From: Nemertoderma westbladi
Lineage: Eukaryota > Animalia > Xenacoelomorpha
Reading direction: 5' to 3'
DNA length: 64,000 nt
NCBI GenBank assembly: GCA_032718475.1
Contig: JAUCBJ010000137.1
Coordinates: 38,805-102,804, forward strand
Below, piece after piece: positions 5,574 to 47,485 of the stretch. Positions within the stretch are counted from its first letter, which is position 1, and every line of letters starts with the position of its first letter. Below the pieces are notes generated by a model, which searched no databases, had not been told where the DNA came from, and was given only the letters and a program-made list of their open reading frames with translations. The position numbers and the translations under genes were made by a program.

Positions 5574-6744
5574 TGTAAAAGCTTTTGCGGATATAATCAG
5601 TCCCCTCGCCCGCAAGGTACCGTTATAGGTGTTTTAACGGACATAAAAGTCATTCTTCTATATGTGTGCTTTGGCGGACATGGTAAGGCATAAAACCCGC
5701 AATGCGTCAAATACTCTGGCACAGCTTAGCCTTGATGATTCAGATTACGACATCTAACAGCTGGTTGCTGACATGGAAACGGCCATTGGACACATAGTTC
5801 TTTGTTTAGCTTAACAGCCAATCAGGGCGATTTTTACTGTCGAGGTGGAGATTTTCTGCAGATCGTGCTAGGAGTGTTCAGTCTTACTGTTTTTTGTGAT
5901 ACTGTTGTGTTGTTTCTATCTAGGCCAGGAACACCGGCTCTAGAGTCAATTCGTTTCAGACTTTAGAAGAAACATTAGTAGGCTTAGATTATAGAACGTA
6001 TAACTGTTATCGGCACATACATTGTCATATCATATCTTAACCTACCGTCTTAATGCTTTTTACTGTTGTTATTATTTTGTATCAGTTGGTTGAATATTAT
6101 TTGGAGAACATCTATAAAGAACCCAAATTTCCCAATTTTCTTGATACACTACAGGTTAGAGAGACAGGTTACATATAGCGATTGCGACTTATATTATCGT
6201 GGTTTGTAGTGAGTTTAATGCTATTTGATAGGCACTACATGAGTCAATTGCTGTTCTCTTTATATATGATAAAATTCATTGACAGTCGGCAGATTAGTGT
6301 GCAGCATTGTGTGTTACCGGTAGTGTGCATGATTGTGACTGATAACTAAGCATTTCCTAAAGAATGCGCCTCATACGTGAATCATAAGCCTTACCGACTT
6401 ACCGTTGTGTTTAGTATAAGTCATATCTCTGTTTACCTAGATAGAGCGCCACGTCCTAAAGGAACTGTTAATATTTCCCGAAAGTGAATAATATTGGTCA
6501 GAAATTATTTATTAACGATCAATCGAATAATACAGTAAGCTTACACTGCAATAACAATCTAAGCCCTCCGAATCCAGTCTCCCGGGTATATCCAGCGGGT
6601 GAATGGACGCGCACTAGGCTGGCTTCGGCTAATGTTGTGTTTATTGGTATTAAATACTTGTCATATGCTAAAGTCTATTTATAAACCAAAAGACATATAA
6701 ATTTTGGCAGGTTAAACTGCTAAAGGTCTTCAAAAGCGCGTACA
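5574..6744 (+). repeat. 5' LTR of element A
   Basis: TGTAAAAGCTTTTG...CAAAAGCGCGTACA (imperfect 14-bp terminal inverted repeat); direct repeat of 39669-40839; CCAAT at ~5818 and Inr-like TCAGTC at ~5878. Confidence 0.97.
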
Positions 6745-6753: not shown

Positions 6754-6810
6754 TTTGTCTTTATTGCAGTAAGCAATAAAGTTGAAAGTACCGGTCGACC
6801 GGTAAACCTG

Positions 6811-16308: not shown

Positions 16309-18325
16309 TGTTAAACAAACTACCCCGGCCTAACCAATAAAGACACAAAACTGCTCTATTTATTAGACAGGGCAATCAGGAGCGTATTATTGCTAATGTG
16401 AGGGGCTGCTAAATACAAAACCGCTACTTACCATTAGATGGCGCTAACCTGCCGTCCGCTAATATGTTTTACTAATTTTCTACGGCTCCTGCTAATTTCT
16501 TGTTCCTTTCTCTACCAATTACTCGATAGAGAGCTAACTGTTCGAATATATGAGCCACGCGGGAATAACCAAAACAACAAACCCGAATCGGCTCCCTAAG
16601 CTGACTTAAAACGAGTGTGAGAGGTTTTACACTCAGAGTATATTCTTACGCCTAATCTTACTGTTAAAGTACGCCAATGCCTACGTCTTTTCTAATCGCG
16701 AATACTGGGGGTTCCCTAACGGAATGTGTGAATGCGAGAATATTTAAAATAATCAAAGTGGTACAGTGTTTATTAGGGCTAATACCTATAGTGGGACTAA
16801 ACTTGTCTGCGGCTGGCTTTAGGCCAGCAAATTACTAATGCGTTTTGCGTACTGAATACTGCTATCTAGCTTATTGCCCGCTAATTCAAATAACCGCCCA
16901 GCGTGAATAGTTAACGGTACTCTAATTATTACCTTAGCTACTCTCCGCTATGCTGCGTACTAATTCTTAATTTTACTAATTAATTACAGTCACAAATATG
17001 TAACAGCCTAAAATACTGTATTACTTTGACCTAATCAGTAATTATTTACAGTAAACTAAGAGATAGAAATCAATCAAAGGGAAAAGAGCGCCTATCTAAG
17101 CATTCGTAATCTTAGGCACACTTTAGTAACACACCAATCAGCGTCAGCAATCACAGCTCGCAATGCGCGATTCGCAATTGTACAATCCGCAATGCACGCA
17201 ATTCGCAATTACACAGCACAATATAATAATTCGCAATACATGCAATTCGCAATTGTAAAGCACGCAGACCTCTCCCAGGTACATCTAGGCTTCCTAACTA
17301 ACCCAATTTCTGCCCCCTAACGCTACAAATTGAGACAAAATCTGGATCATCAGCCCCCTAATTACTGTACCAGCGAGCTGCCCCCACGATACAATGCAAA
17401 TTGCCCGACCGCAACGGTGACCCCCCGCCAGCGTTGCTCGCCTTTGAATCCTCCGCTCCCTTCGTCGCTAACCCCCCGATGTGCCCACCGCCTACTGGCA
17501 CCTTAGCCCTCCATTATGCTAATAGCTACCGTAGCGGCGCATGCAAATCACAAAGTCTGACAGTCTAAAGAAATCCCGTGGGATTATTGCGTAGAAAGGA
17601 ATCACATAGAACCATTAACAAAAGGTAGAAATCATAGTTCCGGTTGTAATTAGCAGTAATCGATAGGATTAATTGAGAAACACAATCAAGAATAATCGCA
17701 CTAGCAAATCATTTTAAGAAATTAATCGAAAATAGCAAATTGCAGAAATACGCTAAAATATCCGTCAAAAAGGTGAATAGGGACAGCTCAGCAAGTACAG
17801 GGGTGATAGCATGAGCTCTACCGGCAAGCCGCCAATTTATAGGTGATCCGAATGGGGTGATGCAATAGGGTGACTCAATCGCTCTCCTATTGGCTCTCCA
17901 GTCCGCGCTAGCATTAGACCAAGCTGGAAGCAGTTAGTCCAATAAGGAGGCCGGATTGTAGCCCTATTGCTGCCCAAACCTCAAATTATTACCATATATG
18001 GTAATGGATCATGTCCCTGGCTGCTGAATGGCCAGGACAGCGTCCCTATATGCTAGCCCTATTGATGCTAATATCAGCAAGCACAAAATCCAGGGTCCGA
18101 CTAAACTTGCTACCCTGGAACTATCTACATATATCCTAAAACAAAATTACGTAGGTAGGGCTACATATTATACAAAATGGATGGATTCAAATATATGGGC
18201 GTTTTGGTTTCCTTATCTAAATGTCACCGCACTGTGCCTTATCTAAATAATTATACTGCACAATAACAAACATATTATACTGTATGATGGCTAATAATGT
18301 GGATACAGCGCCATATACCGTAACA
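16309..18325 (-). repeat. 3' LTR of element B (2017 bp)
   Basis: Direct repeat of 30828-32843; preceded on the minus strand by the PPT. Confidence 0.97.
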
Positions 18326-19587: not shown

Positions 19588-20579
19588 CTAGACGTATATA
19601 TCAGAGCGACGATGATATATAAAGGATTGGACATATTCGGGCTTAGTAATGCGTTCGTCGAAACTTCCCGAAATAATTTGGAGTAAATATCGTATAAACC
19701 GCGGATCGTGGGTATAGTTAGTAGACGGATGGACGGCGCGAATCTCGTCTGGATACTCAGGCGTGAGCTTCCTCTCCTGGTGAAGCGAAGTGAACGTGAT
19801 CCAGGAACTCGAGTCCCGTGCCGCTTCGCGCCGCGCCTCTAGGTCCTTATAGGCTCGGTATAGCGAAATGGCCGCTGCCGTCTCTATCAAACTGGGTGTC
19901 GAACAGGGTTTAATCTCCGTATATGGATCTAAAGTCGTAACGGTCGGCGTAATGGGTCTCGGAGGTCGCTTTCCGCTGAAGTCGATACTGATCATCGGGT
20001 GCTCATCGGGTAACCTCCCTCGTTATATCTAAGGAACTGGTGAGCTTGACATCGCGTTAATATCGGTTCTGGATGTTGCTCGTCTAGTCGGTCGGGAATC
20101 GCCACGTCTTGCTTATTCATGCATTCACCACACTTGTAGAACAGCTTGAACACGCTGAAGACTTTCGGCGTCTCCTGATCCTCGCCTCGAGTCCTCCGGT
20201 ACAGATGCATTCCGTCGAACTGATCTCGGATTGCAGGTAGAGGTTCTTCGTGTCGTAAATACATATTCATATGGTACAGTCGTGCGATCTCCTCATCCGG
20301 GTCTGCACAAATGTCACATACGTCCAAAGCGAAGTCGTAAGGATACCGAGTGCGATACTCTCTCCGCAAAACTTCCATCCGGTCCCCCAACGCTCTCATT
20401 CTTTCCCTCCGTAATTCCTTATCATAAGTCGGTTTATATTTTCCGTTTAGCTCCATCACGGACCGCCCATGGTAGTAAACGTTAGAGTCTTTACATCCTG
20501 GTCGCGCGAATGGTAGCTCCGCCTCCTCTCTGGCAGTAAATCCTCTGCGCGGTTGCGCTCTAATATCCTTCTCCATCAT
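19588..20579 (-). CDS. Element B accessory ORF3 (195 aa + 135 aa, AUGA overlap/frameshift at ~19995); homologous to the N-terminal part of A ORF3
   Basis: TRYP...DPDEEIARLYHMNMYL...PLPAIRDQF...FYKCGEC...RCQAHQFLRY then PMI...RPP...TLDP align with A ORF3. Confidence 0.85.
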
Positions 20580-21339
20580 GCCTCGCGTATATACATATAT
20601 ATATATCCCAATAAGTGCCGTTACGTAACCAATTACACTGTGGGTAAATCAGTTAGATGTCGCCGAAGGACAGACCTCCCGAACCCCCCCGCCTTCCAGC
20701 AGTTCAGGTTCGACTCTCTAGATCCCGTATCTTCCTAACTAACTATCCTCTAACCTATTCCCATGCATAGCGCAAAAACTTTGGAGATAAACTGGCCGTG
20801 ACCAACTCACTTTTTGATGCCCAAACTACTCCCATTACTCGTACTAAACTACAGTAGTTAGAAAGGACTATAGCCACAATACTCGACTATACCAAACCCA
20901 CAGGTTTGATAATCGAACATCACACATCCTGCAAACTACTGAGTGGGGTCCATGTACGCCTCTGGTGCTACTAACCTTTAGCACCTTAGTTGCACTGTTG
21001 GCACCAATCTGTGGAAGTTGCTAAACTCAATTTACACTCCTACGTAATATAGCCGTCACCATGGTTTTCTAAATGCTATTTTCCAGGCTTCACGACTTTT
21101 CAAATTACTGTTTATCTATAGACGAATTCTAAAACGCGTCTATACACAGCGTCTGGAATTGTCTTGGGTTCACTTTTCTAAATTTTTAAAATTTTAATTT
21201 TTCCAAAAATTTTGAAGATAAAATTTTGTTTTTTGATACCCACCAGACAAAACTTAACGCAAATCACCACAACCCCGCTCCTATGCATTTCCTTGTATTT
21301 GCATACGAGGAATGCATACGAAGTGAGTTGCGTCCAACA

Positions 21340-24300
21340 CTAATTCTGTTTTGAGGCAGGAGACAAACTATAATCTCCCGTCTCGATACGTGTCTCCTCT
21401 AACAACACGATATCTTGGACCGGTCGGTCCAAGGTGTGTAAACCATTAGTTTTACACTTCTTTGGGTGCGGACACTTGCACCTAATTTTCACAGTGACTG
21501 TGCGCACTATGTTTTGCACGTCTGGGTGTATATGCAAGATCACTCCCGTCTCCCAATACTTTCTCTTGACAATAGGTTCGGTTATCAGTACGTAATCTCC
21601 CTTTTGGAGACTCCGAACCGTTTTGTACCACTTTGTTCTGGTGGATATGGTGGGAAGATAATATTCCCGCCAATATTCCCAGAATGTGTACGCCACAAAT
21701 TGTGTTACTTTCCAGCTTTTACGACTATATAGGTCGGCACTAATGGGTTCTGATGCCGGCACAAGAAATGCTGGACTCTGCATTAGCAAATGATTCGGCG
21801 TTAATGCAACACCGTCTGGCAACATAGCTATCGGCCTCGAGTTTAGGGTATGCTCGATTTCAATGAAAGCTGTGACCAGTTCGTCGTCGGTAAGTTGTTT
21901 GTTCACAGGCAATGTTTTGGCAATGGCCTGCTTTACAGAGCGAACTAAACGCTCCCAACTTCCTCCTCTCCAAGGACTTTCTGGAGTATTAAATCTCCAC
22001 TCTACTCGTTGCGGCAAAAGTGCTGCAGAAATTTCCTTATTCTGTGCCGCTTTATGAGCCGCGTTCAACTCGCATATTCCCCCCGACAAAGTTTGTACCC
22101 TTATCGGAGTAGAACGCCTTTACTAGTCCTCTCCTGGCCATAAATCTCTTTAAGGCCAGGAGCAGAGATTTGGTCGACATGTCTGCCACACGCTCAATAT
22201 GTATGGCTCTACTAGCCATGCATGTCAGTAGCAGACCCCATCGCTTGTGGGTCAGCCGTCCACTCTTTGCTTCAATCGGACCAAAACAGTCCACCCCTGG
22301 GTTCGTAAAGGGTGGGTCATATGCCTGCACTCTCGCTTCCGGGAGTTCAGCCATCTCCTGTTCCAATACTCTGGCGTTCACCCTCTTGCAAACCAGACAG
22401 GCGTCATACATAGTGCCTGCTGCCCTGCTTGGCTGCAATAGAATGAATCGCTGTCTCGCTGCCGACAAACAGTGTAACCTTCCCGCGTGATGCAACCTCT
22501 TATGTATATCCCATAAAATCGCTCTTTGCAATTCTATTGGGTGACTAGGGATTATCACTGGGAACCTAAACTGTGAGTTAATGTCGACAGTCTGGATTCT
22601 CGATCTATGACAAATCAAACCCTTATGGATTAATGGACTCCATTTTCTAAGGGGTTTATAGAGAACTGGTCGTTGAGCCGATAATAGATGGAATTATTTT
22701 GGGAAGGCACACATTTGATAATGTTTCAAATGCTTTAATTCCGCTTGATCAATCTCATCCTCTGTCAGAGGTTGTTTCAATTTTCGAATTCGCTCACTAT
22801 TAGTGCTCAATGGTTCTCTCAAATGTTCCGAATGTTTTATACAAAGGTACGAAACGTATCGGCTTAACCACGCAGTTCTTTTACAAATTGTCAGCCAAGA
22901 GGCAGACGAATTTAGTAATTTGTCATAAACACTGCATGACTCTAATGCCAGCGACGGTTGTCCGCTAACTAATGGAAGTTTCGAATCCAAACCCGCAGGT
23001 TTGGAAACCAAAGGCTCCATTGTGTCGGTCATTTTCTGTCCGTCACTTACCAATTGTGACTCCGATTTAGTCTGTAAGGGTGGTTTTATGTCATAACTTA
23101 CCCTTCCGGACCTAGTAGTCACGTAAGTCTGTTGGTCTGACAGGTCTCCGGGCCGCTCCAATGACTCTTCAGGCCGCTCCAATGACTCTTCAGGCCGCTC
23201 CAATGACTTAAGTTTGGCTTTAGACTTCGACTTAGAGACTTTCTCCACCTTAACTTCTGCATCTTCAGGCATCGGATTGGTCACTATCTTTAGTCGCTCT
23301 GGCCAATGTTCCTGTGTCCTCGTTAGAAAATCAGGTCCATGCAACCAAAACTCCTGCGACTCTTCCTGACAGAATTCCGCCGGCATTGCACCTCTCGAAG
23401 TTATGTCGGCCGGGTTCAACACTCCCGGACAATGTCTCCATTGTTCCTTCGTCGAAAAATCAACGATCTGAGCGCGTCTGTTGGCCACAAATGTCTTTAG
23501 TGCAATATTGTCAGCCGCAATGTATACTAACACCAAGGATGCATCCGTCCAATAGAATAAGGTCAATGTCGTGTCTAATTCCTCTGTTATTTGCTTACTT
23601 ACCTCGACCGAAACTACAGCCGCCTGTAACTCTGCATGAGGGACAGTCATGTATTTGACCGGCATTGTCTTTGATCTAGAAGTCACAAAAGCCGTCTCAA
23701 ATTTGTCCTGACTTACCTCTCGGCGAAGGTAGGCTACCATACCAAAGCCGGTGTCACTTGCGTCGCTAAATAGATGCAGTTCTAAATCAGCTGGGAATAC
23801 CAGCTGATTCGGAAAGTAGGAACGGGGTACATCTATATTTTTCAATAGATGCAACTCGGCTTCCCACTCCCTGCACTGCTTTGCATGTATAGGAGATATT
23901 GGTTCGTCCCACTCTAGGTCGGATAACCAAATTTTCCTCATGCACGCTCGTGCCTGTAATATAACCGGACTGATAAAGTTCATCGGGTCAAATAGTCTAC
24001 TCAAAGTTGATAAGCAAATTCTCTTTGTCAAAACTTTGTCTGGGCTACTGGGCTCAAATCTAACTCTTACCTGGAACTTATCTGAGTTCGGGTTCCAAGC
24101 GAGTCCCAGTACTCGCGCCATGGGAATTGGTTCTACCCCCAATTCTATGTCTCCGCTCCCGCGATCTTTCACCGGGAACGATTCTAATAGGGCCTCCGAG
24201 TTTGTAGTGAACTTGGTTAGAGGAAAACCCCCTGTAGCCAAGCACTCCTGTAGGCCGTGAGCCACTTCTATGGCTTGTTCCGCTGTGTCCTTGGACACCA

Positions 24301-27300
24301 ATCCGTCGTCCATATAGAAGTTTCTCAAGATGGACTCGATAACCTCTACTGGATACTTACCAATCTGGGCTGTTGCCGTTTTCTTTAAAACAAACAGCGT
24401 GCCATTTGGACTATCGCGGGCGCCAAATATCCTAACGTACATCTGATATGTAACCACTGGGCCGGATAAGTCTTCATTCTCAAACCAGAGAAATCGAAGG
24501 CTATCCTGGTCTGCCTTACAGGCTCTTACCTGGTGGAACATCGCCTCGATGTCACAAGTAAATGCGAATCGCCGCTGTCTAAAACGCAACAGTATTCCAA
24601 TCAAATAATTATTCAGGTTGGGACCATCCATCAACTCTGAATTCAGGGACATACCTCTATAGACTGCTGCGCAGTCGTTGACTACTCGGACTTTGTCTGG
24701 CTTGTCAGGGTGAGTCACATAGTGGTGTGGAAGGTAATAAGTCTGGTCTGTCACTAAGTCAGGGTCCTCTACCTTCCCAGCAAATCCCTTGGCGAAATAG
24801 TTGTTGATCTGGGCGCAATACTTCTCCCTAATGTCCGGATTCTTCAACAACCGAGCCCTTACTCCGTTTAATCTTTTCAAGGCTAAGTTGTAGTTGTTCT
24901 CCAGCTTAGGTGGTTGTCGACGCCACAACATTCCAGCTTCAAAATGTCCAGTCGGTAGCAGACGTATGGTGTCTTCCATCATCTCCAACGACCGTTTCTC
25001 ATCAGTAGACATGGCTAGGTCATATCCACCGGGTTCCATTGCGTCCCTATCCAGCCATTCGACGGTTCTGGCTCCTGTCTCGAGGTCCTGGTGTATCAAT
25101 TCCTTCTGTAATTCCTCCTCACTGTATTGGAAAATGTCTAGGTCTCGATATTTAGCCACTTGACCCTCCACTATGTCTGTATAAGTCAAAACGTTAGTCA
25201 GATAAGTAGCGTGGGCCGCTAAACCAGACCCACGGGTCTGATAACAGTAGTGCTCGGGTTCACTATCTGTCTGGTCGTTGTGAAGTGGTTCCGACAACCT
25301 AACATTATCGGGAATCAACTCCTCGTCCGACTCGCTAAAGTCACTATAGTGGTCAATACAGGTTCTCCTAAACTCGTCTAAGTCTGGTGGTTCTACTAAC
25401 GGTGGTTGAATTATAGGCTGTAATTCGTCGTATCTGTCTATTGGCTTGTCGCCACCTGTAAACTCATAAGACATGGGTACTCTTGTATACCAACCTAGTA
25501 TGGTCCTATGGGCATGCGGTCCATTGACATGCGGCTCAGCTGGTCTCGTTTCCCATATCTGGTGTGCGATCAGCTGTTCTGCACCAATCAACATAGAAAC
25601 ATTCCTATAACCTACCTGGTGTCTCGGTATCCTGAGCTTGTCAAAATACTCCTGTGCTATGGGACTCATCGGCGGCACCTTACCTAACTGCCTGCCGAAT
25701 CCCTTCATAGCTAGACACTTAAATCCGTCCAATGGCAAAGCTTTCCGTTCTTGTCGAGTATGTTGGTCTCTCGGAAGTAGGGAATCTAGTTCCACTGAAA
25801 TTCTGTGTCCCTTGAGGTCTCCTACCCCATGCATAGACTTCAACTCTATTTGGATCTCCTCTGCGTCCTGGAAGCTAGAAATGGCTCTCGCCACTTCCTC
25901 GTCGATATAAGATAATGTGGACGCAGTGTCCAACATCACATATATTCGCTTCGATCCCTTATCGCCAGTAAGTTTCACCGGAATCACGCTAAATATTTCC
26001 GACGTGGCCAATGATAAATACGTCCGCGCGCTGGTCGATGAACTATCCGCGGTGAAACCTTGGCAGGTCACTTCTCTTGCGCTCGACTCGCCATCCTCAT
26101 CCGACGAACCTGGTTGGTAACCATCGTCCTGGATGCCGGTGTACGTATTTCTCCTTATCGATACGGGTTCTTTGCTCCCCTTCCTGTGAGGATTTCGCTG
26201 TAAGTAACGGTCCGTCGGGGTGTGGAAATCCGCATGTAGCAACTTGTGATGTAGTCTGCCGCATTCCATGCATCCGTCATTGCTGTTCGGGCACTGCCGC
26301 CGTACATGGCCTGGCGCAAGACATGCCCAACAGGTGTCCAACGTCCGCACTTGAACTCTTCTCTGTTGCGAATTTAATTCTTTGAACCGTCTGCAACTAT
26401 CTAACTTATGATCGTCAGATCTTACCTCCTTTAGTAAACAGTATTGGCAACCTACAAATCCATCCGGCAACTCCTGTTGCTTTAACCTAGGTCTATCTAA
26501 CCGCTCACCTGACCATACTCGCGAGTCTGATCTAAAGGCTGGGGTACTCGAATTATATCTGTCTACTGAGTTATAAGTCACAGTGGTCCTGTCATTGTCA
26601 AAACTTACCATAGACTTACCGGTAACAGGTTTAGACTCCCTCATATTCTCCTCTGAGAAGTTTGATTTCATCTCTGCTACTGCGTCTGTGGCTATCATGT
26701 CATGAATGTGCTGAAGTGTCAACACCTTACCTTGACCCTCCAACTTATTCTCTAATTTGCGCCATTTCTGTCGATAACGCATGTTTAAACGTCTTATTAC
26801 ACTCTTCAAAACTTCGGCGTGATCACCATGATAGAGGTAGATTCACCGTCCTCAAGATGTCCAATGCGTTCGAAATAGCGTTCGCTAAGTTCAACAGCTC
26901 TAACGGAGTTGTAATCCTTCCGCCCTTACCCAAGTCTTCCACTATCGACTGCGCCATCTTGGTTTTATTCCCGTAGATGTCACTAAGCGTCTTCATTGCC
27001 AACTCAAATGCCCTTTCATTGCCGACGAAGTTATCAGCAATGGCTCTAGGTTCTCGATGGAGCATCTGAAGCAAATAGTTGAACTTCTCGTTGGGAGTAA
27101 AGGTGCTGTTGGTTAGCTGCTCGTCGACATAGGTTTTAAAGGTCCTCCAGTGCTTATGGTTGCCCATAAACTTCTGGGGTTGTTGCGTCGGCAGTCCTTG
27201 CCTAGCAGCAAACTTACCTATGTCCCTAAGGGTTGCGTCGTTCCGGGTTAACAAATGGTTTAGTTCCGCAGGGTTGTTAAGTCTGGTCCTTTCCCGGGGA

Positions 27301-29643
27301 TTGAAACTTACCTGCTCCGCGTCCGTCCTTCTTTCCTTATAGTTTCGGGACTTCTGACGTCTCATGTCTTCCTCTTCATCACTTGACTCGGTGTCAGTCC
27401 TTAGCGCTCGCGATGGTTTGCGCGCCGAGGCCCTGACCCAAGCATCTTGTATAATTTTCTCAGCCGAATTTTCGAAATTGGGATTATGAATATTCGGGAC
27501 AGGCGTCCTTACCTGAGGTCTATGTGGTATAGTCTCCTCCGATATGCGTACTCGTTGACTAGGCTGGACTTTATCTAACTCAGGCCTGCTAGGATTTGAA
27601 TTACTTCTTACCTGGGCTGCTTCCTTTAACCGTAGGTTGCTAAGCATGTCCATTATAGGTTGGATGTGCGGCGATATAGCTTGCGCTAAACTAGCACTTA
27701 ACTCATCCCTCGTAATAAATTCCTGGCTAGGGTTCTGTTGTATAGTCGGCTCTATCTGAGTAATCCGCTGTCTCTCATATGATCGCTCTTCCGGTTTAAC
27801 CCGGAAGTTCTCCGTCGAACTGGGTCGGCGCTCCGTCCGCGTATTCCAAACCCGCGGGTTTGGTTCGCCAAGTACCGTCGGAGTTTCTCTAAACTCTTCA
27901 TCGTCGTGTTCGGTGTGTAGTGGTGCGGTGTTCTGATGCCGTGGATTCTGCGCGATAGGTGAAGCACTAATACCAACTGGCGTGCGATATGTAGAGAACG
28001 GTTTAGCGATCCGTGTACTCGTAATAGCTGGACCGGGTATAGGAATTCTGGTCGTCGTCGTCTCGCGTATGGTCGGAGTTCTCGCTTCCTGTTCGGCCTT
28101 CTGCAGTGCGAACAGTTCTCGCAACTCGGTCCCTACACTCGCCCCACATTCTTCGATCATTCGCATCCCCTTCTCGGCGATTTCATTCGCCTTCCTGGTC
28201 CGTTCTTCGCTCTCTAAATTTAATCTCGCACTTTCTAACTGCGCCAGTTTACGTTCTTCTTCTTCCCTCGCTCGTCTCGCTGCGCTCTCTTCTTCCACAC
28301 GCGCCTTTTCTTCATACAATGCGCGTCTTCTTTTTTCGATCTCGAGTTCGCGTTCCTTGCGTTCGCGTTCGAGTTGAAGCTCGCGTTCCTTCTGTTCACG
28401 TTCGAGTTTCTTGCGCTCGCGTTCGAGTTGAAGTTCGCGTTCGAGTTGAAGTTCGCGTTCTCTCTGTTCGCGTTCGAGTTCCTTGCGCTCGCGCTCGGCT
28501 TGAAGCTCGCGTTCCTTTTGCTCGCGTTCCGCTCGTTCGCGCTTACTTATGTCCTCCAACTCTCGTAGCTCTGCGTCCAACTTACGTGTGCGCTTCCGCC
28601 TGTTGTTCGTCCAGTCGGCGTCTTCTCTCCTCCGCCAAGTTGTGAGAAACAAGGGATCTGGCACATATAACTTTCCCTCGCGCGTGACTAACCTGGGAAT
28701 CGCCACTGTCTCTAGATGCATCGTCGGGTGGAGTTAACGTTCTCTGTTGGATATTCTCCGTCGTCGGTAGCACCTGGCCTGGTACCACCACTCCATTCTG
28801 CATCAGCCAGCTAGTAACTTCCCTCTGATAACGGCGCTCTTCTTTATCTTGGATCTCTTCCCGCTCCACTAAGTCTCTCAACTCTGCGTCACTCACCTGA
28901 GTCGCCTGCGCTTGTGATGCCCATAGCAGCCAGTTCTCCGTCCTTACTCGTCGGAATCGCTCCGATAACTCGCGGTGCTCCAACAAGGCTGCTAAAACCC
29001 TGTCGTAAATCCTCATCGCCACGTCGCTCGACTGAGACTCTACTGCCTTCTTCGCTAGGACTGCAAGCTCCTCCGTCTGCTTGAATAACGCTGAGTTGTA
29101 TCCTCTTCTAATCTCTACTAACTCTACCCTCCCGATGTTGGCTGAGTCAGCTAACATCTTCCTTACCTTGTCCGTCGTCCGAGTTATATGTCCGGCATGT
29201 GCGCGAAGTTTCTTCTTTATCGCGATATCAAGTTCTCTCTCGCTTACCTGACTCACACTCGGTGGACTTGAAGGATTATTTCGGGAACTACGGGTACTCC
29301 TAACAGCCGTCGGGACCACGGCACTTACCATACCCACAGGTCTGGAAACCGGGCTCCGGGCTCTCGCTTCTGCTACACTACTCTCCCTATCACTCACCTC
29401 TGTCCGGGCTGCTGTGCGGTCCTTCCTTACAGTAGCGGTAGGGGATCCTAATACTATTATCTCTGGTTGTTGTTCTTCCTCACTAGTCACTGTCTCATCC
29501 TCCTGTTCACTTACGTCAGCGTCGCTCGCTGCGTCGTCATAGTCGGCATTGTCGTCAACAGTTATGTTTACGCTATCGTCAGTCGGTGGTCCAGCCGCCG
29601 TCTCGTAGCTGTCCTCTAGTGCCTCTTTGTCTGAGACACTCAT
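21340..29643 (-). pseudogene. gag-pol: Element B gag-pol, disrupted by frameshifts (~28590, ~26840, ~22080) and an in-frame TAA (22694-22696)
   Basis: E/R-rich coiled coil, KFMGNHKHWRTF, three Cys/His knuckles, MLDTAS protease, FYMDD RT, LFSDAS RNase H, GVDCFGP / SDKGTNF / GSWERLV integrase. Confidence 0.95.
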
Positions 29644-30489
29644 AGTCTAAATAATGTTTGCCTTCCGGCAAAATATCTCGCAAAAGTTCGAGATATAATT
29701 ATAATTTAACCGAAATATGGTCAAATTATTTGTCTAATAATCAGTTGGTCCAAAATGTCAAATAAATTCGCAATGCAATATTGTGAATTTAATGGGGTAT
29801 AGTTATAGCAAATACTAGCACAATATTTAAACAAAATATTATTATATAGCTACTATATAGTATTAAATACCGGTATGACACAAAATAACTTTGAATCTAA
29901 TACAAAATATTCAAAATAAACTTGCCACCCGAATATTTCTAATTTTATATATATAGCTCTAATCAACGTAATTTTAATTTCAAATATTATATGTATCCAC
30001 TAGCGCGTGGCTACATCTTCGGGTTGCGACTCTCTCTAACTCTCTCTCTAACTTGAGCGATTCAAAAAACCATGGCCGGCTAAACCTAAATATCCTAACT
30101 AATAAATTGAGTTCAGCTTCGCAGTTAAACAACCGATAATTTTTACTGCTTCCACAAACACAATGGTGCCAACAGAACAACTAACCTTGTTTGCTGTGAG
30201 ATTCCACGTCCGCATCCAAAGATTCAGGCCCTTCGCTGATTGCAAACCGAACCCGCAGATCCACACGAACCCCAAACTCAGAAGTATCTCCAGATGGTAT
30301 AAAATAACTAAGCGGTTACCTAACATACCGGTACAATACTCTAGAATTTTACAAATAATTTTGACCGAAACTGAATTCTCGCAAACCTAGCTAAAATTTT
30401 CAAAACTTACTAATTACAGTTTGCCCTAAGGCCTAAGGAACTGCTGTATTCGCAATTAGTAAAAACGCACTACCGTACATCCACTGTAT

Positions 30490-30827
30490 GCAGCACAGTA
30501 AGTAAAACAGTACACCAACCTAACAGCCTAAAGAATACTGTATGTGGTACAGCAAAACAAATGTCCTTTCTACCGTACGCAGTAACAGCAATCAGCCTAA
30601 TGTACTGCTGTACTATTGTACGCAACCAGTGAATACAGTAATCTAAACTAACAGCCTAAGAAAGAATACACTCAATGTCCTACTGTACGCGGTAGGCCTA
30701 CAGCAGACAAGAAACGTGCTTTACTGTTGAAGTAACAGTAAATAATACAGTAATCTAATTTAACAGCCTAAAAGAATATACTCTCTGTCTTACTGTACGC
30801 AGTACAGCAAAACAAAACGTGCTTTAC
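30490..30827 (-). repeat. Degenerate tandem repeats in the 5' UTR of B, including a second copy of the LTR-end/PBS motif
   Basis: AACAGCCTAA-containing units; AAACGTGCTTTACTGTT occurs at 30712-30728 and 30815-30831. Confidence 0.8.
30818..30827 (-). promoter_or_regulatory. Non-canonical primer-binding position of B (sense GTAAAGCACG), complementary to an LTR-internal sequence
   Basis: Abuts the 5' LTR; no TGG; the complement lies inside the LTRs at 31773-31782 and 17255-17264. Confidence 0.55.
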
Positions 30828-32843
30828 TGTTAAACAAACTACCCCGGCCTAACCAATAAAGACACAAAACTGCTCTATTTATTAGACAGGCAATCAGGAG
30901 CGTATTATTGCTAATGTGAGGGGCTGCTAAATACAAAACCGCTACTTACCATTAGATGGCGCTAACCTGCCGTCCGCTAATATGTTTTACTAATTTTCTA
31001 CGGCTCCTGCTAATTTCTTGTTCCTTTCTCTACCAATTACTCGATAGAGAGCTAACTGTTCGAATATATGAGCCACGCGGGAATAACCAAAACAACAAAC
31101 CCGAATCGGCTCCCTAAGCTGACTTAAAACGAGTGTGAGAGGTTTTACACTCAGAGTATATTCTTACGCCTAATCTTACTGTTAAAGTACGCCAATGCCT
31201 ACGTCTTTTCTAATCGCGAATACTGGGGGTTCCCTAACGGAATGTGTGAATGCGAGAATATTTAAAATAATCAAAGTGGTACAGTGTTTATTAGGGCTAA
31301 TACCTATAGTGGGACTAAACTTGTCTGCGGCTGGCTTTAGGCCAGCAAATTACTAATGCGTTTTGCGTACTGAATACTGCTATCTAGCTTATTGCCCGCT
31401 AATTCAAATAACCGCCCAGCGTGAATAGTTTACGGTACTCTAATTATTACCTTAGCTACTCTCCGCTATGCTGCGTACTAATTCTTAATTTTACTAATTA
31501 ATTACAGTCACAAATATGTAACAGCCTAAAATACTGTATTACTTTGACCTAATCAGTAATTATTTACAGTAAACTAAGAGATAGAAATCAATCAAAGGGA
31601 AAAGAGCGCCTATCTAAGCATTCGTAATCTTAGGCACACTTTAGTAACACACCAATCAGCGTCTGCAATCACAGCTCGCAATGCGCGATTCGCAATTGTA
31701 CAATCCGCAATGCACGCAATTCGCAATTACACAGCACAATATAATAATTCGCAATACATGCAATTCGTAATTGTAAAGCACGCAGACCTCTCCCGGGTAC
31801 ATCTAGGCTTCCTAACTAACCCAATTCCTGCCCCCTAACGCTACAAATTGAGACAAAATCTGGATCATCAGCCCCCTAATTACTGTACCAGCGAGCTGCC
31901 CCCACGATACAATGCAAATTGCCCGACCGCAACGGTGACCCCCCGCCAGCGTTGCTCGCCTTTGAATCCTCCGCTCCCTTCGTCGCTAACCCCCCGATGT
32001 GCCCACCGCCTACTGGCACCTTAGCCCTCCATTATGCTAATAGCTACCGTAGCGGCGCAGGCAAATCACAAAGTCTGACAGTCTAAAGAAATCCCGTGGG
32101 ATTATTGCGTAGAAAGGAATCACATAGAACCATTAACAAAAGGTAGAAATCATAGTTCCGGTTGTAATTAGCAGTAATCGATAGGATTAATTGAGAAACA
32201 CAATCAAGAATAATCGCACTAGCAAATCATTTTAAGAAATTAATCGAAAATAGCAAATTGCAGAAATACGCTAAAATATCCGTCAAAAAGGTGAATAGGG
32301 ACAGTTCAGCAAGTACAGGGGTGATAGCATGAGCTCTACCGGCAAGCCGCCAATTTATAGGTGATCTGAATGGGGTGATGCAATAGGGTGACTCAATCGC
32401 TCTCCTATTGGCTCTCCAGTCCGCGCTAGCATTAGACCAAGCTGGAAGCAGTTAGTCCAATAAGGAGGCCGGATTGTAGCCCTATTGCTGCCCAAACCTC
32501 AAATTATTACCATATATGGTAATGGATCATGTCCCTGGCTGCAGAATGGCCAGGACAGCGTCCCTATATGCTAGCCCTATTGATGCTAATATCAGCAAGC
32601 ACAAAATCCAGGGTCCGACTAAACTTGCTACCCTGGAACTATCTACATATATCCTAATACAAAATTACGTAGGTAGGGCTACATATTATACAAAATGGAT
32701 GGATTCAAATATATGGGCGTTTTGGTTTCCTTATCTAAATGTCACCACACTGTGCCTTATCTAAATAATTATACTGCACAATAACAAACATATTATACTG
32801 TATGATGGCTAATAATGTGGATACAGCGCCATATACCGTAACA
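30828..32843 (-). repeat. 5' LTR of element B (2016 bp)
   Basis: Direct repeat of 16309-18325; sense-strand TATAAA at ~32354-32359 and CCAAT at ~32408-32412. Confidence 0.97.
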
Positions 32844-33712: not shown

Positions 33713-35337
33713 TACGTCTGGAGTGGGTGTATGACTATATTATTTTATCTATTTTATTATATTTTATATGTGAACATTATTATGTACTTTATTATAATCG
33801 TTTTTATTCAATTTTATTTAGTAGAAGGTTATTTTAGATTATTTGGTAGATTAGTGCAATATATTAGTGTTTATTACGTAATTACATATATATAATATAT
33901 ATTTAGTGTGACGGCGAGAAATAATTTTTCCTTTTCCTTACGGTCCGTATTATATTATAAACACGAGACTACAGTAAGATGAAATATCCGTACTTATTAA
34001 AGTACAATAAAGCCACTACTATATTCAAGTATTATTGGTAGGCAGAGTATTAGGAATGCAAAGTTCAGATCCTCGTGTCTCGGCTAAACCAAGCTCTGGG
34101 TAGACCTTGGAAACGACTTGCCTCTTCACACTGACATTGCTTCGTGCGATATTGCTCTTCTACCTTATATTAAATAATACATGTAGTAGCGTGATGTCCC
34201 TCTAACAGTAGCGTAAAACGCAAATAAATCTGTTAAACCTTTTGACCATCTGTAATTCTAGTCGATTAAGATATCGCGGCACCCACCGATATACTTGAAA
34301 GACAAATTCTAGAATCAGTGGTTAACGTCCCCAGACAAGTTCTGGAATAAATCGGTGCCCATCTTAAATATTAATTTAATATTTATTAAAATCTGTAAAA
34401 TTCAGATCCTTTAAAATTTCTAGTCAATTAAGATATCGCAGCACTTACCGATACTCTTAAAGGACAATTTTATAGAATTAAGGATCCTCAGTCCCCAGAC
34501 ATGCTCTGGAATAAAAATTGTGTCAATTTTAACATCAAATAATAAAATTCACGGGAATAAATTTAAATTCATATTTTTAAATGAATTTCATAAATTGTCA
34601 TTTTGTGCAATTTATAACATTCCCAAAATTCCATTAATTAATAGATCATGGGAGCGGAGATTCATCCTATTGAGTGTATTAGAGTGCGAGAATCTCCAAC
34701 ATATAGTCAATAGCCGATAAAATTAATAAAATCATGCATAAAGAGGATATTGACAATTAAAGAATTATTATTAAATAGCATTCCAGATCTGTATGCATGA
34801 GAATTACCCTAATTCTACCGCTAGCATTCCATAATGTCACCATAGCAACACCCACGCTAGAGCATTAGAAGCAAGTTAAAAGAACAATAGAAAGCTTGTC
34901 CCATTGCATAGCATAGAGAATACATAGCACACTGTTAGTATCCAAGGATACACAGTAATAACGTGACATTCTGGAAGGCACTGACTAACGGACAAATGGC
35001 CTGTATGTGTACAATTGGTGACAGTTGTGTGGAATTTGTGCGTTTATAGGTGAATGTTACTGCTAAAGTATGTTTACAGTAGCTAGTCGCAATTGTAAAA
35101 GTAGCCCAACTCTCCTATAGAAATAACCTAAAGTGGATCCAAGCCTTTGGGACGGACAGTGGAGTGACTTGTGCCGGTTATCGTTGTCGTGCTGTTGCTA
35201 CATGTTGGCGTAAACACCGCGACGACGGTACATCGGCGCTGAGAATCCCACTGTCCGGGGGCAAAGAGAGGTAGGCAGCGATGCCCGCTCGCCTAAACAT
35301 AAACTCATTTTGATATTAATAAACTCAGATAGCAGAT

Positions 35338-38300
35338 ATGACGGAGTTGATAGAAGATGATCTTGCTATTAGGGAGCGATATACTCTACCTTTACAAGCA
35401 TTTGTGGATAGCTTAATACGCGGTGAAGCCGATCCAACCATTACAGAGGACGATGGTCGTTATATCGAACCGCCGATGTCCCAAGAGCAACTTGCGCGTG
35501 AATTGGATTATCGAAAATTCACCGCTCGCTATACGAATCGTAATGGTACGTATATGGACTTCTTAACTACCGGCCATCCTATCGATTTACATGATACGGA
35601 CGATGTAGATACAGAGAGGGAAATGGTTCTATTTAAATATCATACCCAGCGGAGTCGTAACGATAAACCGAGAATGGATCACGAAAATTCTATTCGTAAT
35701 AGACTGAAAAGAGAAAACGTTGAAGAACCGGATAAACGCATCGACTTCAACGAATACCTAGAATTTTTGAGAGAAACCTATCTCAACATCGCCAGTCAGC
35801 AGAACCTAGAGACTCGATATCCTCAAGGTATACATCATGACCCTGTGGTAGAACTCAAACGGCTCTATTTCACTATGATGTATCTTACCGCCGATCGTCC
35901 ACTACCTGTTATCCCGGATAGTTTTGAACAAATGGAAGAATATTGCAAAACTGGAGAACGATCACCCGCATTTCCTCTACAGGACGTACGTCTTTGGTAT
36001 TATTGTGACGAATGCCCTAGACCCAAACAACAAACTGAAAGACATAAACATCCGCGGAGACGTTGCGCTAAACACAGCTTTACGCGTTACACTTACGGGA
36101 GTTTCGAGCGAAACCTGTTCGACGTACCACCTACGATCGCTCGTCTTAAACGATCACTGAATAAACCCATGATCAGAGTTCCGGAATACTCGGTCAGGCC
36201 TCCTCATTCCCTAGTGAGACCTCAAACTCTTGATCCTAACAGTATCACTGATCCTCCCGAACTATATTCCCTGTTCAAAGACTTAGTGTTACCCGAACAA
36301 TTAATCGGTGGTGCTCCGGTAGTGGGTTCGTTAGACATTCGCCCATCCTACTTAGCCGGACTGGGACGCGGGCAGCTAATATCACCCTTTGATCCTTACA
36401 ATCGTCCAGGATTAAACCCGATGCAACCCGCCACGGAAGTCGAGGAGAGCGTTATAAGAAACGCTTTAGACGCTATTCGACAGAAGATCGGAAAGGGAAC
36501 ACAAGATTGTTTAGAGAAACGTAAATTACAACAACAAGTCCAATCGGTGAAGGAGTTAGCCTTGCCACAGTTCGATAGAGAAATCCAAAACCTCGAGGAG
36601 GACATCGAGCTTGGACGCACGTATTCTCTACAAGAATTTTTAGATGAACGCTTACAGAGACAAGCGGAAGAAAATCTACTCGAAGAGAAACACACGAAAA
36701 TGGACGAGAGAGAAGAAGCCGCTTTAGCCCAACCTGAAGCTCAAATCCTTATGACGGATCTCTACTCTAAAACCGTCCGTCATCCCTCGATGATTCCACA
36801 TTTCGGAGACAAACTCTTCGCGACGATACAACCTCAACCGGTTGATATCAGTACAGGATCGCAAAATCTTATCGCTGACGCCCCTATGTTACAGCGTCCG
36901 CCGATCGAGGCCGCTCGTGTTGACGGTATACTCGTTGAACCTCCGGACAATCGAGCGGATCTTGTCCGTCGTATGGTACACGATGTCAACATACGCGCTA
37001 GACCTTTACAGAACTCGTTTTATGGGATTAAAGACCACCCTTATTACGTTAATCTGACTCAATATTATATGGTAAAACCAGAAGACCCGACGCATAATTT
37101 AAAGTTTCTACCACTAATAAATCCTCTAGACATTGTCGAGCTCGAACAATTGCAGAAACATCTGGATCAGTTAGTAAAGGTAAACTCATTTAGAAAACCA
37201 TATAACATTTCTCGAATCGAGAAGGATATAGAACCTCCTTATAATCTCGATGGATTTATTAAAACTCGACTAGTCCATTGGAATCTAGATGTATTATTTG
37301 AAGAAGAGAAAATACAAAGATATGGAAATGTGGAGACGTATACCACTCGGCACATGAAGTATAGTGATCTCCCTGACGCTAACCAATGCGCCACCTTGTG
37401 GCATCCAGTAGGAATGACCCTAGAGAACGCCACCAAGGAGTGGAATGAAACTCTTAATGTTATTGAGATGTATGGAGTTGTCACCTACGATAATGAAGGT
37501 AGCGTTCCGGTCGGAGAACTAGGAACTACGCGCATGATCCACATACGCGGATTAGCTGGTTCTACCCACGTGTTTACTCGAGCGTGTTCCGACGTGATTG
37601 ATTATTCCTTTGAAACTCTCACCGAAACACAAAAGAATCTCCGACATGGACAATTCGAACTCGCGCAGCGTTACGTCATTGACACCGAACGCAAACCGGC
37701 CATGGGTATCGATGGATCGATGTTACCCAGCCCGTACTCGAGATGTTGTTCAATGAAAGAATCCTTAAAATTGGCTCAGCTGTTTATGGAGATCTCCAAA
37801 ACGACTTTCGGAATATGGAGAACATTCCATACCCTTTCGTTGATACTCAGCTGATTGCTCCCTGGGCAGAAGGTCGAGGTTTCTTCCGCACCATGTATGC
37901 TAATACGTCTAGCAACATTACAAAGGTGCAACGAACTTCCATCGGACATCTTGCCTTTCAGGAATACGGATGGAATTTCAAAGTCGGAAATCCCATCAAC
38001 TATCAACAAGTATACGGAGATCATTATTCTCGATTATACTTTGATGGACCATTAACCGCACCTGGCGCCGTGTATAGCTTCATGAGTGTTCCACTCCGTC
38101 CCTCCTTAGCTATCTACACAATCTTTGAAAACACCGCACTTGCCGGTTGGCTAGCCGATGTGTGCAGTCGTACTATACGCGCCCATCCATTAATACTTGG
38201 GACCAAACTCGCTAAGCTAGATGAACATAATAAATTCATCCGCTTCGAATGTTTCCGGCGCTTTTTAACCCCGTTCCGCAACGTGGATAGCCAATTTAAA

Positions 38301-39590
38301 GACCGCGCTTTGACCAAGCTCAGCCTAAGAAACTCAGCTGCAGAGAAGTTGGATAGTGCTGGATTCGCCATTTTCAAAGAGATTTGTATATCGAACTTGC
38401 ACTCCTCTGTTATACAAAGACCTCGAATCCCCACAGGTTATTCTGTCGTGGAAATTCAGACAATAGGTCCACTTGAAGAGACAGACACGCCTACCTCAGC
38501 TATGCACTTGGAAGACGAACCAATATGTCTAGAATCTGAGGAAATTCAGCCTATCGCGCCCCGGAACAGCGACAACGATTACATCATAGAATGGTATCAA
38601 GGTCCACAGTGTCTCACTGCGTACGATTATCGACATGCCAACTATGTTTCTAGGCAACGTTGTCGGTTATGCGAATCGAGAGACCATGTTACGCCCATGG
38701 ACACAAACGTCCGCTGTTCCTATTTCCAAGAACAACCGACGATGGAAATTTATTGCGCATATTGCAGACTCAATAACTTGCATATTTTTGCGGTTTGCCC
38801 TCAATTTATGACTCAATGTCACCATTGTCAACTAAAGGGACACGCCAGTTTCGATTGCCCTTTTAATCACGATTTGGAAAGCGTAGATGAAATGATCACA
38901 CTACGTTACATCAGAGCTTGGGAAGCGAACGCTGATTTACATTGTGATTCGCGCCATCGTTATTATCCTGGACGCGCTTACGAAGGAATTTATGCGTTCC
39001 ATCCTTATCTATTCGCTTCTGTCGAACAGAAATCACGCATATCGAGTTACGAATTACTGAAGCGCGTCGGAGAATGTATTTCAACCAAGTTCGTACGCAA
39101 ATTTCTCAGGAGTGTTAATCCTAGCGACCTTCATTCCTATAACTTAATCAATTATATCCGTCAGGATCCGGACTATGGAGACTTATTTGTTAACTCACAC
39201 CCCGAGTTACAGGAAGTATATCGACGGCCTTACGAATACCGAGCCCGCGAACGCGAGTTGGAAAGAACCATTAAACCCCGGAGGTTTCTAACTGCCTATG
39301 GTCCACCCACGGCTCTCGTTCAGACCACTCGTAAAGGACCCGTAAGAGCGGCTGTCTTAAAACGCGCTCTCAAAGCCGTTAGACCCCTCTCCCCCGACGT
39401 TGATGTCAATCAACCCGGCACTTCGACTGGCGGATACACCGACCATAATCCTACACCCTCTGATGCAATTATATTGCACCCTTCACCCAGGAGTTATAGC
39501 CCTCCTTGTAAAGTGGCTCGCCCCAAAGAGAAAAGGACTCTGGCCAGCTTTAAAAAACTGCGTAAACGCCGTCCGCGCAAGAAAGACTAA
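35338..39590 (+). CDS. Element A accessory ORF3 (~1417 aa if the 1-nt frameshift at ~37731-37733 is repaired): Cys/His domain + coiled coil + DEDDy-like exonuclease + 3 zinc knuckles + basic tail
   Basis: Overlapping 838-aa and 615-aa ORFs join as LPSP-VLEMLFNERILKIG on adding one C; motifs VVTYDNEG, KIGSAVYGD, FVDTQLIA, PLTAPGAVYS; CHHCQLKGHASFDC; KKLRKRRPRKKD; no signal peptide or TM segment. Confidence 0.85.
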
Positions 39591-39668: not shown

Positions 39669-40839
39669 TATAAAAGCTTTTGCGGATATAATCAGTCCCC
39701 TCGCCCGCAAGGTACCGTTATAGGTGTTTTAACGGACATAAAAGTCATTCTTCTATATGTGTGCTTTGGCGGACATGGTAAGGCATAAAACCCGCAATGC
39801 GTCAAATACTCTGGCACAGCTTAGCCTTGATGATTCAGATTACGACATCTAACAGCTGGTTGCTGACATGGAAACGGCCATTGGACACATAGTTCTTTGT
39901 TTAGCTTAACAGCCAATCAGGGCGATTTTTACTATCGAGGTGGAGATTTTTTGCAGATCGTGCTAGGAGTGTTCAGTCTTACTGTTTTTTGTGATACTGT
40001 TGTGTTGTTTCTATCTAGGCCAGGAACACCGGCTCTAGAGTCAATTCGTTTCAGACTTTAGAAGAAACATTAGTAGGCTTAGATTATAGAACGTATAACT
40101 GTTATCGGCACATACATTGTCATATCATATCTTAACCTACCGTCTTAATGCTTTTTACTGTTGTTATTATTTTGTATCAGTTGGTTGAATATTATTTGGA
40201 GAACATCTATAAAGAACCCAAATTTCCCAATTTTCTTGATACACTACAGGTTAGAGAGACAGGTTACATATAGCGATTGCGACTTATATTATCGTGGTTT
40301 GTAGTGAGTTTAATGCTATTTGATAGGCACTACATGAGTCAATTGCTGTTCTCTTTATATATGATAAAATTCATTGACGGTCGGCAGATTAGTGTGCAGC
40401 ATTGTGTGTTACCGGTAGTGTGCATGATTGTGACTGATAACTAAGCATTTCCTAAAGAATGCGCCTCATACGTGAATCATAAGCCTTACCGACTTACCAT
40501 TGTGTTTAGTATAAGTCATATCTCTGTTTACCTAGATAGAGCGCCACGTCCTAAAGGAACTGTTAATATTTCCCGAAAGTGAATAATATTGGTCAGAAAT
40601 TATTTATTAACGATCAATCGAATAATACAGTAAGCTTACACTGCAATAACAATCTAAGCCCTCCGAATCCAGTCTCCCGGGTATATCCAGCGGGTGAATG
40701 GACGCGCACTAGGCTGGCTTCGGCTAATGTTGTGTTTATTGGTATTAAATACTTGTCATATGCTAAAGTCTATTTATAAACCAAAAGACATATAAATTTT
40801 GGCAGGTTAAACTGCTAAAGGTCTTCAAAAGCGCGTACA
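39669..40839 (+). repeat. 3' LTR of element A
   Basis: 1171 bp; begins TA rather than TG; about 5 substitutions versus the 5' LTR by eye; followed by TSD GCCTA. Confidence 0.97.
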
Positions 40840-45720: not shown

Positions 45721-46397
45721 TAATACCTCACGTATTTTCCTCCATTTAAACTTTAATTTAAAACTATCCCTCCACCCTCTACACCCCCTCCACCCTCTCC
45801 ACATAGGTAAATTTATGATCCCTATGATAATGTCGTTGGTTCCATTTTGAAACCACCTTAACTCCAAATGTGACATTTTCCAGAAAACAACATGATTCAT
45901 AATATAATTTCGTTGTGGAGTAAAATTAAATGAGTTTAGACATATTGGTAATCTTACTAGAAAGATTACCAATATGTCTAAACTCATTTAATTTTACTCC
46001 AAAACGAAATTTGTTCTGGAAATTGTCACAACAACCACGAAGCTAAGGAAAATTAAACAAGCTTTTACTCTTTCGTACGTTACTTAATATCTTTAAGAGG
46101 TAGGCCTATTTGCCTTTATTCAACTCCTATTGTCATAGAAACTAGAGTATTCTCAAATAGTTTTTTAAGCTTTAAGAAAAGATCCAGATTGTGGTTCAGT
46201 TCAGATGACATATTTGCGTTTCAGAAAATATTATTGTATAGTTTATTTACAAATTAACTATTTTCTATCAAAACGTCTGTTTGAAGTGGTTGTCATGGGA
46301 AACTGAGAAATAGTAGAACCTCAATCGGATTCAGAATAAGTTATATAGTGGAGTAAGGCATTGTCGGTACCGTACTGGTGTAGGGGTATCGTAATGC

Positions 46398-47485
46398 TGG
46401 TAGGGGTTGGTCCCAAGTCGTAACACCTTAACCGTAGTAGGGGTTGGTCCCAAGTCGTAACACCTTAACCGTAGTAGGGGTTGGTCCCAAGACGTAACAC
46501 CTTAACCGCAGTAGGGGTTTGTCCCAAGTCGTAACACTTTAACCGTATGCTTTATTTGGGTGGAGTAAGGCATTGGTCCCAAGTCGTAGCACCTTAACCT
46601 TAGTAGGGGTTGGTCCCAAGTCGTAGCACCTTAACCGTATGCTTTATATGGGTGGACTAAGGCATTGGTCCCAAGTCGTAACACCTTAACCGTATGCGTT
46701 ATGTGGGTGGAGTAAGGCATTGATCCCAAGTCGTGGCACCTTCACCGTAGTAGGGGTTGGTCCCAAGTCGTAGCACCTTAACCGTATGCTTTATGTGGGT
46801 GGAGTAAGGCATTGGTCCCAAGTCGTAACACCTTAACCGTAGTAGGGGTTGGTCCCAAGTCGTAACACCTTAACCGTATGCTTTATGTGGGTGGAGTAAG
46901 GCATTGGTCCCAAGTCGTAGCACCTTAACCGTAATATAAGTGGGTGGAGTAAGGCATTGGTCCCAAGTCGTAGCACCTTATCCGTAATAGGGGTTGGTCC
47001 CAAGTCGTAACACCTTAACCGTATGCTTTATGTGGGTGGAGTAAGGCATTCGTCCCAAGTCGTAACACCTTAACCGTAGTAGGGGTTGGTCCCAAGTCGT
47101 AACACCTTAAACGTAGTAGGGGTTGGTCCCAAGTCGTAACACCTTAACTGTAGTAGGGGTTGGTCCCAAGTCGTAGCACCTTATCCGTAATAGGGGTTGG
47201 TCCCAAGTCGTAACACCTTAACCGTATGCTTTATGTGGGTGGAGTAAGGCATTCGTCCCAAGTCGTAACACCTTAACCGTAGTAGGGGTTGGTCCCAAGT
47301 CGTAACACCTTAAACGTAGTAGGGGTTGGTCCCAAGTCGTAACACCTTAACTGTAGTAGGGGTTGGTCCCAAGTCGTAACACCTTAACCGTTGTAGGGGT
47401 TGGTCCCAAGTCATAACACCTTAACCATATGCTTTATGTGGGTGGAGTAAGGCATTGGTCCCAAGTCGCACCGGTAGCACCTTAA
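46398..47485 (+). repeat. Compound minisatellite of 37-bp and 55-bp units sharing a ~27-bp core
   Basis: Core TGGTCCCAAGTCGTAACACCTTAACCGTA followed by either GTAGGGGT or TGCTTTATGTGGGTGGAGTAAGGCAT. Confidence 0.95.

Follow-up and report, generated by a model that had tools for sequence, protein, structure and literature searches.

A BEL/Pao-type retrotransposon of Nemertoderma westbladi may prime reverse transcription from its own LTR transcript

Two nested BEL/Pao-type elements

The window analysed here, a stretch of 64,000 nucleotides from Nemertoderma westbladi, holds two nested BEL/Pao-type LTR retrotransposons, with element B (minus strand) located inside the integrase of element A (plus strand). 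The main features of the two elements are as follows.

5574..6744, plus strand: 5' LTR of A, the element that hosts B (repeat pair)
39669-40839, plus strand: 3' LTR of A (repeat pair)
30828..32843, minus strand: 5' LTR of B, 2016 bp, with TG..CA ends
16309..18325, minus strand: 3' LTR of B, with an A-like purine-rich tract directly before it on the sense strand
21340..29646, minus strand: gag-pol of B, in several frames in this copy, with DUF1759, Peptidase_A17, Integrase_H2C2 and DUF5641

Element B spans 16.5 kb, and its two LTRs of 2.0 kb share 99.4% identity, carry TG..CA termini and are accompanied by a 5-bp target duplication. B is multicopy in contigs from DNA sequencing runs of the host. 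Both A and B encode DUF1759, Peptidase_A17 and integrase domains. In B, Peptidase_A17 (E 9e-37), DUF1759, Integrase_H2C2 and DUF5641 are found in the PR-RT-RH-IN order, and PF05380 is carried by all 120 homologs among the matches listed; the paired TG..CA LTRs, the target duplication and the purine tract are likewise those of a BEL/Pao element. The RT-RNase H regions of A and B are just 42% identical. The database proteins nearest to the two elements show 35–41% identity, and the named ones among the matches listed belong to marine invertebrates and a single fish. On the minus strand (window 30949 to 29647), a strong GT donor close to the LTR end of B and an AG immediately preceding the gag ATG could allow splicing to remove the primer-binding site (PBS) from a translated B mRNA. 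Elsewhere in the window, a third element (61014-62534) carries a retropepsin-like ORF of 506 aa, and a 53-bp perfect-loop palindrome (45906-46011) adjoins a 37-bp tandem array (46363-47521).

Pairing of the B primer-binding position with its own LTR

The features of B that bear on priming lie in and around its LTRs.

30818..30827, minus strand: primer-binding position of B, 10 nt directly 3' of the 5' LTR, without TGG
31773..31783, minus strand: candidate self-primer in the 5' LTR, contiguous and not split by an intron, with 10 Watson-Crick pairs at 31773-31782 and a G:U pair at 31783
17255..17264, minus strand: copy of this segment in the 3' LTR, identical to that in the 5' LTR
30712..30728, minus strand: 17-mer duplicate of the LTR end plus PBS, within a 5' UTR tandem repeat, exact in this copy
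32353..32359, minus strand: TATAAAT, candidate promoter, with CCAAT/ATTGG boxes upstream
31287..31292, minus strand: AATAAA, 480 nt downstream of the primer segment
30878-30883, minus strand: second AATAAA, in the 5' LTR

Past the 5' LTR, the sense strand of B reads GTAAAGCACG (plus 30827-30818). TGG is absent from its first 12 nt, and an 18-nt PBS of the ICTV type, matching a tRNA 3' end, was thus not found in B. A preliminary description of the window had claimed that the 10 nt after the LTR are instead exactly complementary to LTR positions 31773-31782, with a G:U pair extending the match to 11 bp, and the sequence confirms this. The exact complement occurs once per LTR (LTR positions 1062-1071 of 2016), and it forms the strongest duplex between the B LTR and the post-LTR 14-mer (-17.6 kcal/mol versus -13.4 kcal/mol for the runner-up). 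Dinucleotide shuffles equalled the match in 7 of 3000 cases at offset 0, in agreement with the earlier chance estimate of about 0.2%, and in 25 of 3000 cases at offsets 0-6. Nearby sequence gives a higher background: among 500 offsets downstream, 10 reached at least 10 bp, two of them being the site itself and its duplicate, and the remaining 8 of 498 (about 1.6%) exceed the shuffle level because the leader is repeat-rich. Post-LTR sequences swapped in from other elements paired over at most 8 bp with the B LTR, with 0 of 16 reaching 10 bp. An intron splitting the B segment was also looked for, and the best spliced pairing was 6 bp, so B carries no splice-built match of this kind.

The duplicate at 30712-30728 had been taken as a sign of constraint. 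It is exact in this copy, as described; its exactness is weak evidence, because the contigs of other B copies include a UTR repeat unit with two changes inside the 10-mer. The TATA noted earlier near 32355 is real, and with transcription from the TATAAAT there, about 550 nt of RNA would precede the primer segment. The segment would then be internal to the RNA, a position that also holds in relatives with a visible TATA, where it ranges from near the RNA start (L023) to roughly 100 nt in.

The match of element A is weaker.

6002..6010, plus strand: 9-nt complement, in the A LTR, of post-LTR positions 6745-6753, weak on its own

This 9-bp match is equalled by 37 of 3000 shuffles and by the opposite-strand control, which also gives 9 bp. 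It lies near background, and the earlier proposal that A and B amount to covariation between families was not upheld. The best spliced pairing found when an intron splitting the A segment was looked for was 7 bp. A second candidate primer site in A, at about 6455-6470 of the window, comprises 11 bp including two G:U pairs, at offset 1 and about 280 nt from the LTR end. Taken by itself, the window provides a modest and only suggestive case for B; since the B match alone is modest, the case is carried by relatives of the two elements.

Own-LTR pairing in related elements

The search alignment was composed of A, B and 13 homologs and yielded 79 metagenome loci (from the best 80 of 485 relatives, in 27 of the 64 parts of the collection); the viral contigs searched contained no relatives of A or B. 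Both LTR ends were fixed by a repeat pair in 17 loci, and removal of two duplicate families left 15. These 15 together with A and B were the 17 elements of the first pass, in which one GT-AG intron was allowed. The final set consisted of 13 metagenome families plus A and B, 15 elements in all, with three families of common PBS collapsed. The acceptor filter was loosened from 8 to 7 pyrimidines after one locus (L006) had been read by eye, and the null was recomputed with the loosened filter.

In this first, stricter pass, 14 of 17 elements paired with their own LTR over 10–15 Watson-Crick bp, compared with 2 of 266 swapped pairs. The final set gave own-LTR pairing of at least 10 bp in 13 of 15 elements with differing post-LTR sequences, while the same length was reached by 0 of 210 swapped pairs, 1 of 15 opposite-strand controls and 0 of 14 sham flanks. 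The preliminary description had proposed that further families be checked for the same geometry; the relatives keep it, and own-LTR RNA priming is thereby supported more strongly than from the window. The two elements below 10 bp are A (9 bp) and L067, which is tRNA-type and lacks the pairing. TGG follows the LTR in only 2 of the 15 fixed-end metagenome elements. The locus L003 (1-90, 6462-6876) combines a TGG at offset 1 with a 10-bp spliced self-match at offset 3; because of this TGG and a weak donor it may be tRNA-type, possibly an intermediate between the tRNA type and the self type. Two further runs, on loci whose LTR ends are not independently fixed, are exploratory; one-LTR loci extend the pattern, more cleanly in the second run than in the first. 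Spliced matches of at least 10 bp occurred in 11 of 13 loci in the first exploratory run, with opposite-strand controls reaching at least 10 bp in 6 of 13 (all contiguous), and the second, on one-LTR loci, gave matches in 11 of 27 versus 0 of 27 controls, 8 loci being too short and many lacking an LTR.

Downstream of the segment, 14 of the 17 elements in the first-pass table carry a poly(A) signal (L023 and L063 are without one, and L006 is mis-placed there), and in most relatives it is located 12–97 nt behind the segment. B has a GT start like that of 9 of the 12 metagenome primers listed. At their 3' ends the inferred primers have at most AC in common, and each relative's primer shares only 0–5 3' nt with that of B, so no single host RNA fits.

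The RT identity of the relatives is 35–44%. In the RT tree, obtained by a quick search, unrooted and with 7 of the 79 loci left out, A and B form a long-branch pair with no settled position among the relatives. At this identity and with such long branches, the relatives serve as an analogy for B and not as its sister families. L075 and L076 consist of head-to-tail tandem copies of one BEL/Pao element that repeat every 6138 bp, which may be an artefact of assembly.

A predicted LTR intron splits the primer in most relatives

In most relatives the primer segment is split by a predicted LTR intron, a feature missed in the preliminary description. The first clue came from L043 and L062, in which a partial match begins directly after a pyrimidine-rich AG. 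Only across a predicted GT-AG junction in the LTR do 9 of the 13 metagenome families reach 10–15 bp, their unspliced pairing being 5–9 bp. The predicted introns of the fixed-end set are 71–186 nt long, with GTAAG donors in most. The junction-matching site sits 0–5 nt from the LTR end, the usual position of a tRNA PBS, and since it matches an exon junction, the complementarity can act only on RNA.

The spliced type is spread over several separate clades of the quick, unrooted RT tree. One fully supported clade (L043, L048, L062, L024 and L068) has five different PBSs, each matching its own junction. Between L023 and L031 the exon-1 half differs, and the PBS changes match. In another clade (L013, L014, L020, L026, L030, L059, L064 and L065) the PBS is near-constant and the exon-2 start has the same 7 nt, with the intron varying from 96 to 371 nt.

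Contiguous own-LTR pairing of at least 10 bp was observed in L056, L063 and L068. The 3' LTR of L068 is an exact join of the donor side of L037 and the acceptor side from its own 5' copy (L068:100-326 and 6694-7103; L037:6683-6977), as expected if a spliced LTR had been reverse transcribed, although the 5' copy of L068 may be an assembly mosaic. The L068 3' copy thus appears to be a natural intron-less LTR, pointing at the DNA level to splicing of the LTR intron and copying back. The intron is kept in 10 of the 13 distinct families with pairing (nine splice-dependent families plus L068 with its intron-bearing copy).

The PBS of B begins with GTAAA, as in the clade of L043, L048, L062, L024 and L068. 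B resembles the intron-less forms L056, L063 and the L068 3' copy and is probably of the intron-less type. We infer that it descended from an intron-bearing ancestor, a step that goes beyond the tree, because A and B are long branches without a settled position; no intron-bearing form of B was seen.

Proposed priming mechanism and alternatives

Priming of B from its own LTR RNA, whether in cis or in trans, is likely. Our preferred reading, with a probability of roughly 0.55, is that an LTR RNA segment folding back in cis, and not a tRNA, starts the reverse transcription of B; this priming, like the cut and the splicing, is deduced from sequence. Transcription of B would start upstream of the segment, and the segment would pair with the PBS by folding back within one RNA molecule. 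The RNA would then be cut where the duplex ends on its 3' side, probably by the element RNase H, and the freed 3' OH, with AC as the last two nucleotides, would prime minus-strand DNA. Such a cut would be needed because the TATA places the segment inside the RNA and not at its start. Strand transfer of the strong-stop DNA would use the sequence from the cut to the poly(A) site, an overlap provided by the poly(A) signals downstream of the segment. Where relatives carry the intron, the segment would be put together by host splicing, and intron-less forms (B, L056, L063 and the L068 3' LTR) would have been fixed when a spliced 3' LTR was copied. In Tf1, the primer cut is made by RNase H. Flanking helices like those of the Tf1 'pretzel' were looked for in B in 40–60 nt windows and did not exceed shuffles (80–264 of 300 shuffles were equal or better).

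On a wider scale, it seems fairly probable that a wide branch of animal BEL/Pao elements swapped tRNA priming for an LTR-encoded, spliceosome-assembled primer, with splicing licensing reverse transcription. B would be a derivative that lost the intron by copying a spliced LTR, leaving its primer ready-made.

ORF3 had been assigned an exonuclease fold with a speculative role in cleaving or trimming the primer RNA.

19588..20648, minus strand: ORF3 pieces of B, with a Cys/His-rich block related to A ORF3 residues 164-261; the exonuclease part was not detected

The ORF3 of A (window 35323-39590) has about 1400 codons in two frames and a late CCHC-like region, and the ORF3s of both elements belong to one orphan family with the Cys/His-rich block, for which the searches found no homologs. 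A ORF3 had 0 homologs among 1.84 billion representatives, and B ORF3 had none among longer proteins. No Pfam family supported an exonuclease at E<=1, the Atlas search gave 0 matches, and the single-sequence structure model had a pLDDT of 31. B ORF3 matches only residues 164-261 of A ORF3, with no match to the part of A where the exonuclease had been seen, and in the relatives the 3' LTR follows the integrase match after only 45–384 nt, which leaves ORF3 unnecessary for priming. An ORF3 exonuclease as a required primer-trimming enzyme was accordingly rejected, as ORF3 is absent from the relatives and B lacks a match to that region of A.

Among the alternatives, the one that survives best, as a less probable but serious candidate, is an own-LTR primer acting in trans. 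Here the LTR alone would give rise to a short transcript, terminated at its poly(A) site and, in families with the intron, spliced. This transcript would anneal to the PBS on another, unspliced genomic RNA molecule and be cut or trimmed to the duplex edge. This would explain why the intron persists in 10 of the 13 distinct pairing families, and it fits the poly(A) signals 12–97 nt behind the segment in most relatives. It would also sidestep two features of B, namely a 945-nt loop between segment and PBS, compared with 47–216 nt in the relatives, and a segment-PBS pairing probability of only 0.04 in a whole-leader fold. Against these points, the trans primer rests on a putative short LTR transcript, and no precedent for it was found in the literature covered; Tf1 acts in cis (bioRxiv 2022.12.06.519325).

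We consider it improbable that the B match is a chance occurrence or a vestige, aided by the repeat-rich LTR and UTR, and that B is primed otherwise. The long LTR of B, the match length reached by about 1.6% of nearby offsets (8 of 498), the near-background match of A and the loose tree position of B would all suit such an explanation, but chance must then combine the placement at offset 0, the loss of TGG and a GT start like that of 9 of the 12 metagenome primers listed, and the swapped PBSs stay at or below 8 bp on the B LTR (0 of 16). The weakest alternative is priming by the 5' half of host tRNA-Val(UAC) cut just past the anticodon, whose anticodon arm the last 8 nt of the inferred B primer resemble; it is very improbable, since the 0–5 3' nt shared with the primers of relatives fit no single host RNA, the longer own-LTR match would be left unexplained, and half-tRNA priming does exist in Ty1/copia but, in a plant survey, with halves cut in the anticodon stem and only in Ty1/copia lineages (PMC6317226). 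No tRNA genes were found in the window or in the 79 loci.

Comparison with known systems

Self-priming in BEL/Pao would bring a third superfamily to the self-priming elements, after the Tf1/sushi gypsy group and, by prediction, one plant copia lineage, and would account for elements annotated as lacking a PBS. A splice-completed primer would couple reverse transcription to host RNA processing and might make the element independent of the tRNA supply and of silencing by tRNA fragments. This reading predicts exact RNA ends and splice junctions that can be checked in existing host RNA-seq. In the literature covered, neither self-priming nor a splice-built primer is described for BEL/Pao; a prior mention elsewhere, for example in Repbase, GyDB or subscription papers, is possible. 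In their accessible portions, the BEL/Pao surveys PMC3118150, PMC554778 and PMC6238403 make no mention of a PBS or primer binding, and those of PMC13524379 and PMC11042837 hold nothing further on BEL/Pao self-priming.

Judged by its proteins, B is BEL/Pao-type, yet it deviates from the priming described for this group. For Belpaoviridae, the replication of which is called poorly understood, the ICTV gives an 18-nt PBS for tRNA-Arg or tRNA-Gly, LTRs of 0.2–1.2 kb and genomes of 4.2–10 kb (PMC8742986). B is similar to Belpaoviridae in having DUF1759, Peptidase_A17, integrase and DUF5641 in the PR-RT-RH-IN order, TG..CA LTRs and a purine tract, and differs from them in lacking a tRNA-type PBS, in its 2.0-kb LTRs and in its span of 16.5 kb.

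Elements of the half-tRNA class, to which copia and Ty5 belong, offer a partial parallel. The Ty1/copia lineages Osser, Bryco and Bianca resemble B in a PBS without a TGG start. Their PBS tracks one invariant host tRNA, whereas the PBS of B and its relatives changes with their own LTR; constancy of the PBS across a lineage, as expected of half-tRNA priming, is not seen among the relatives of B, where it varies.

Elements that prime themselves with a fragment cleaved from their LTR transcript form an established class (PMC6317226); such self-priming is reported for Tf1/sushi and Tcn1 (PMC6317226, bioRxiv 2022.12.06.519325, PMC5443660, PMC3601003) and predicted for the TAR lineage of copia (PMC6317226). 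In that plant Ty1/copia lineage (Houba, Osr-1), as in B, self-priming is predicted from PBS-LTR complementarity alone; superfamily and host kingdom differ, and the available part of the source describes no splice-built primer there (PMC6317226). The closest parallel in function is with Tf1/Tf2 of Schizosaccharomyces pombe and the Tf1/sushi chromoviruses, including Tcn1 (Ty3/gypsy), which lack a tRNA PBS and in which an LTR-adjacent site pairs over about 10–11 nt with the element's own LTR transcript (bioRxiv 2022.12.06.519325, PMC6317226). B shares with them a PBS complementary to its own LTR (10 bp plus G:U). Unlike these chromoviruses, B has a Pao-type Pol, in which no chromodomain match was found. 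In Tf1 the extreme 5' terminus of the RNA serves as the primer, accompanied by two flanking helices, whereas the B segment appears internal, judged by the TATA position, and its flanking helices were not found; the relatives of B further differ from Tf1 in that their segment is split by an intron. B is thus similar in function to Tf1 self-priming, but stands outside the Tf1/sushi group.
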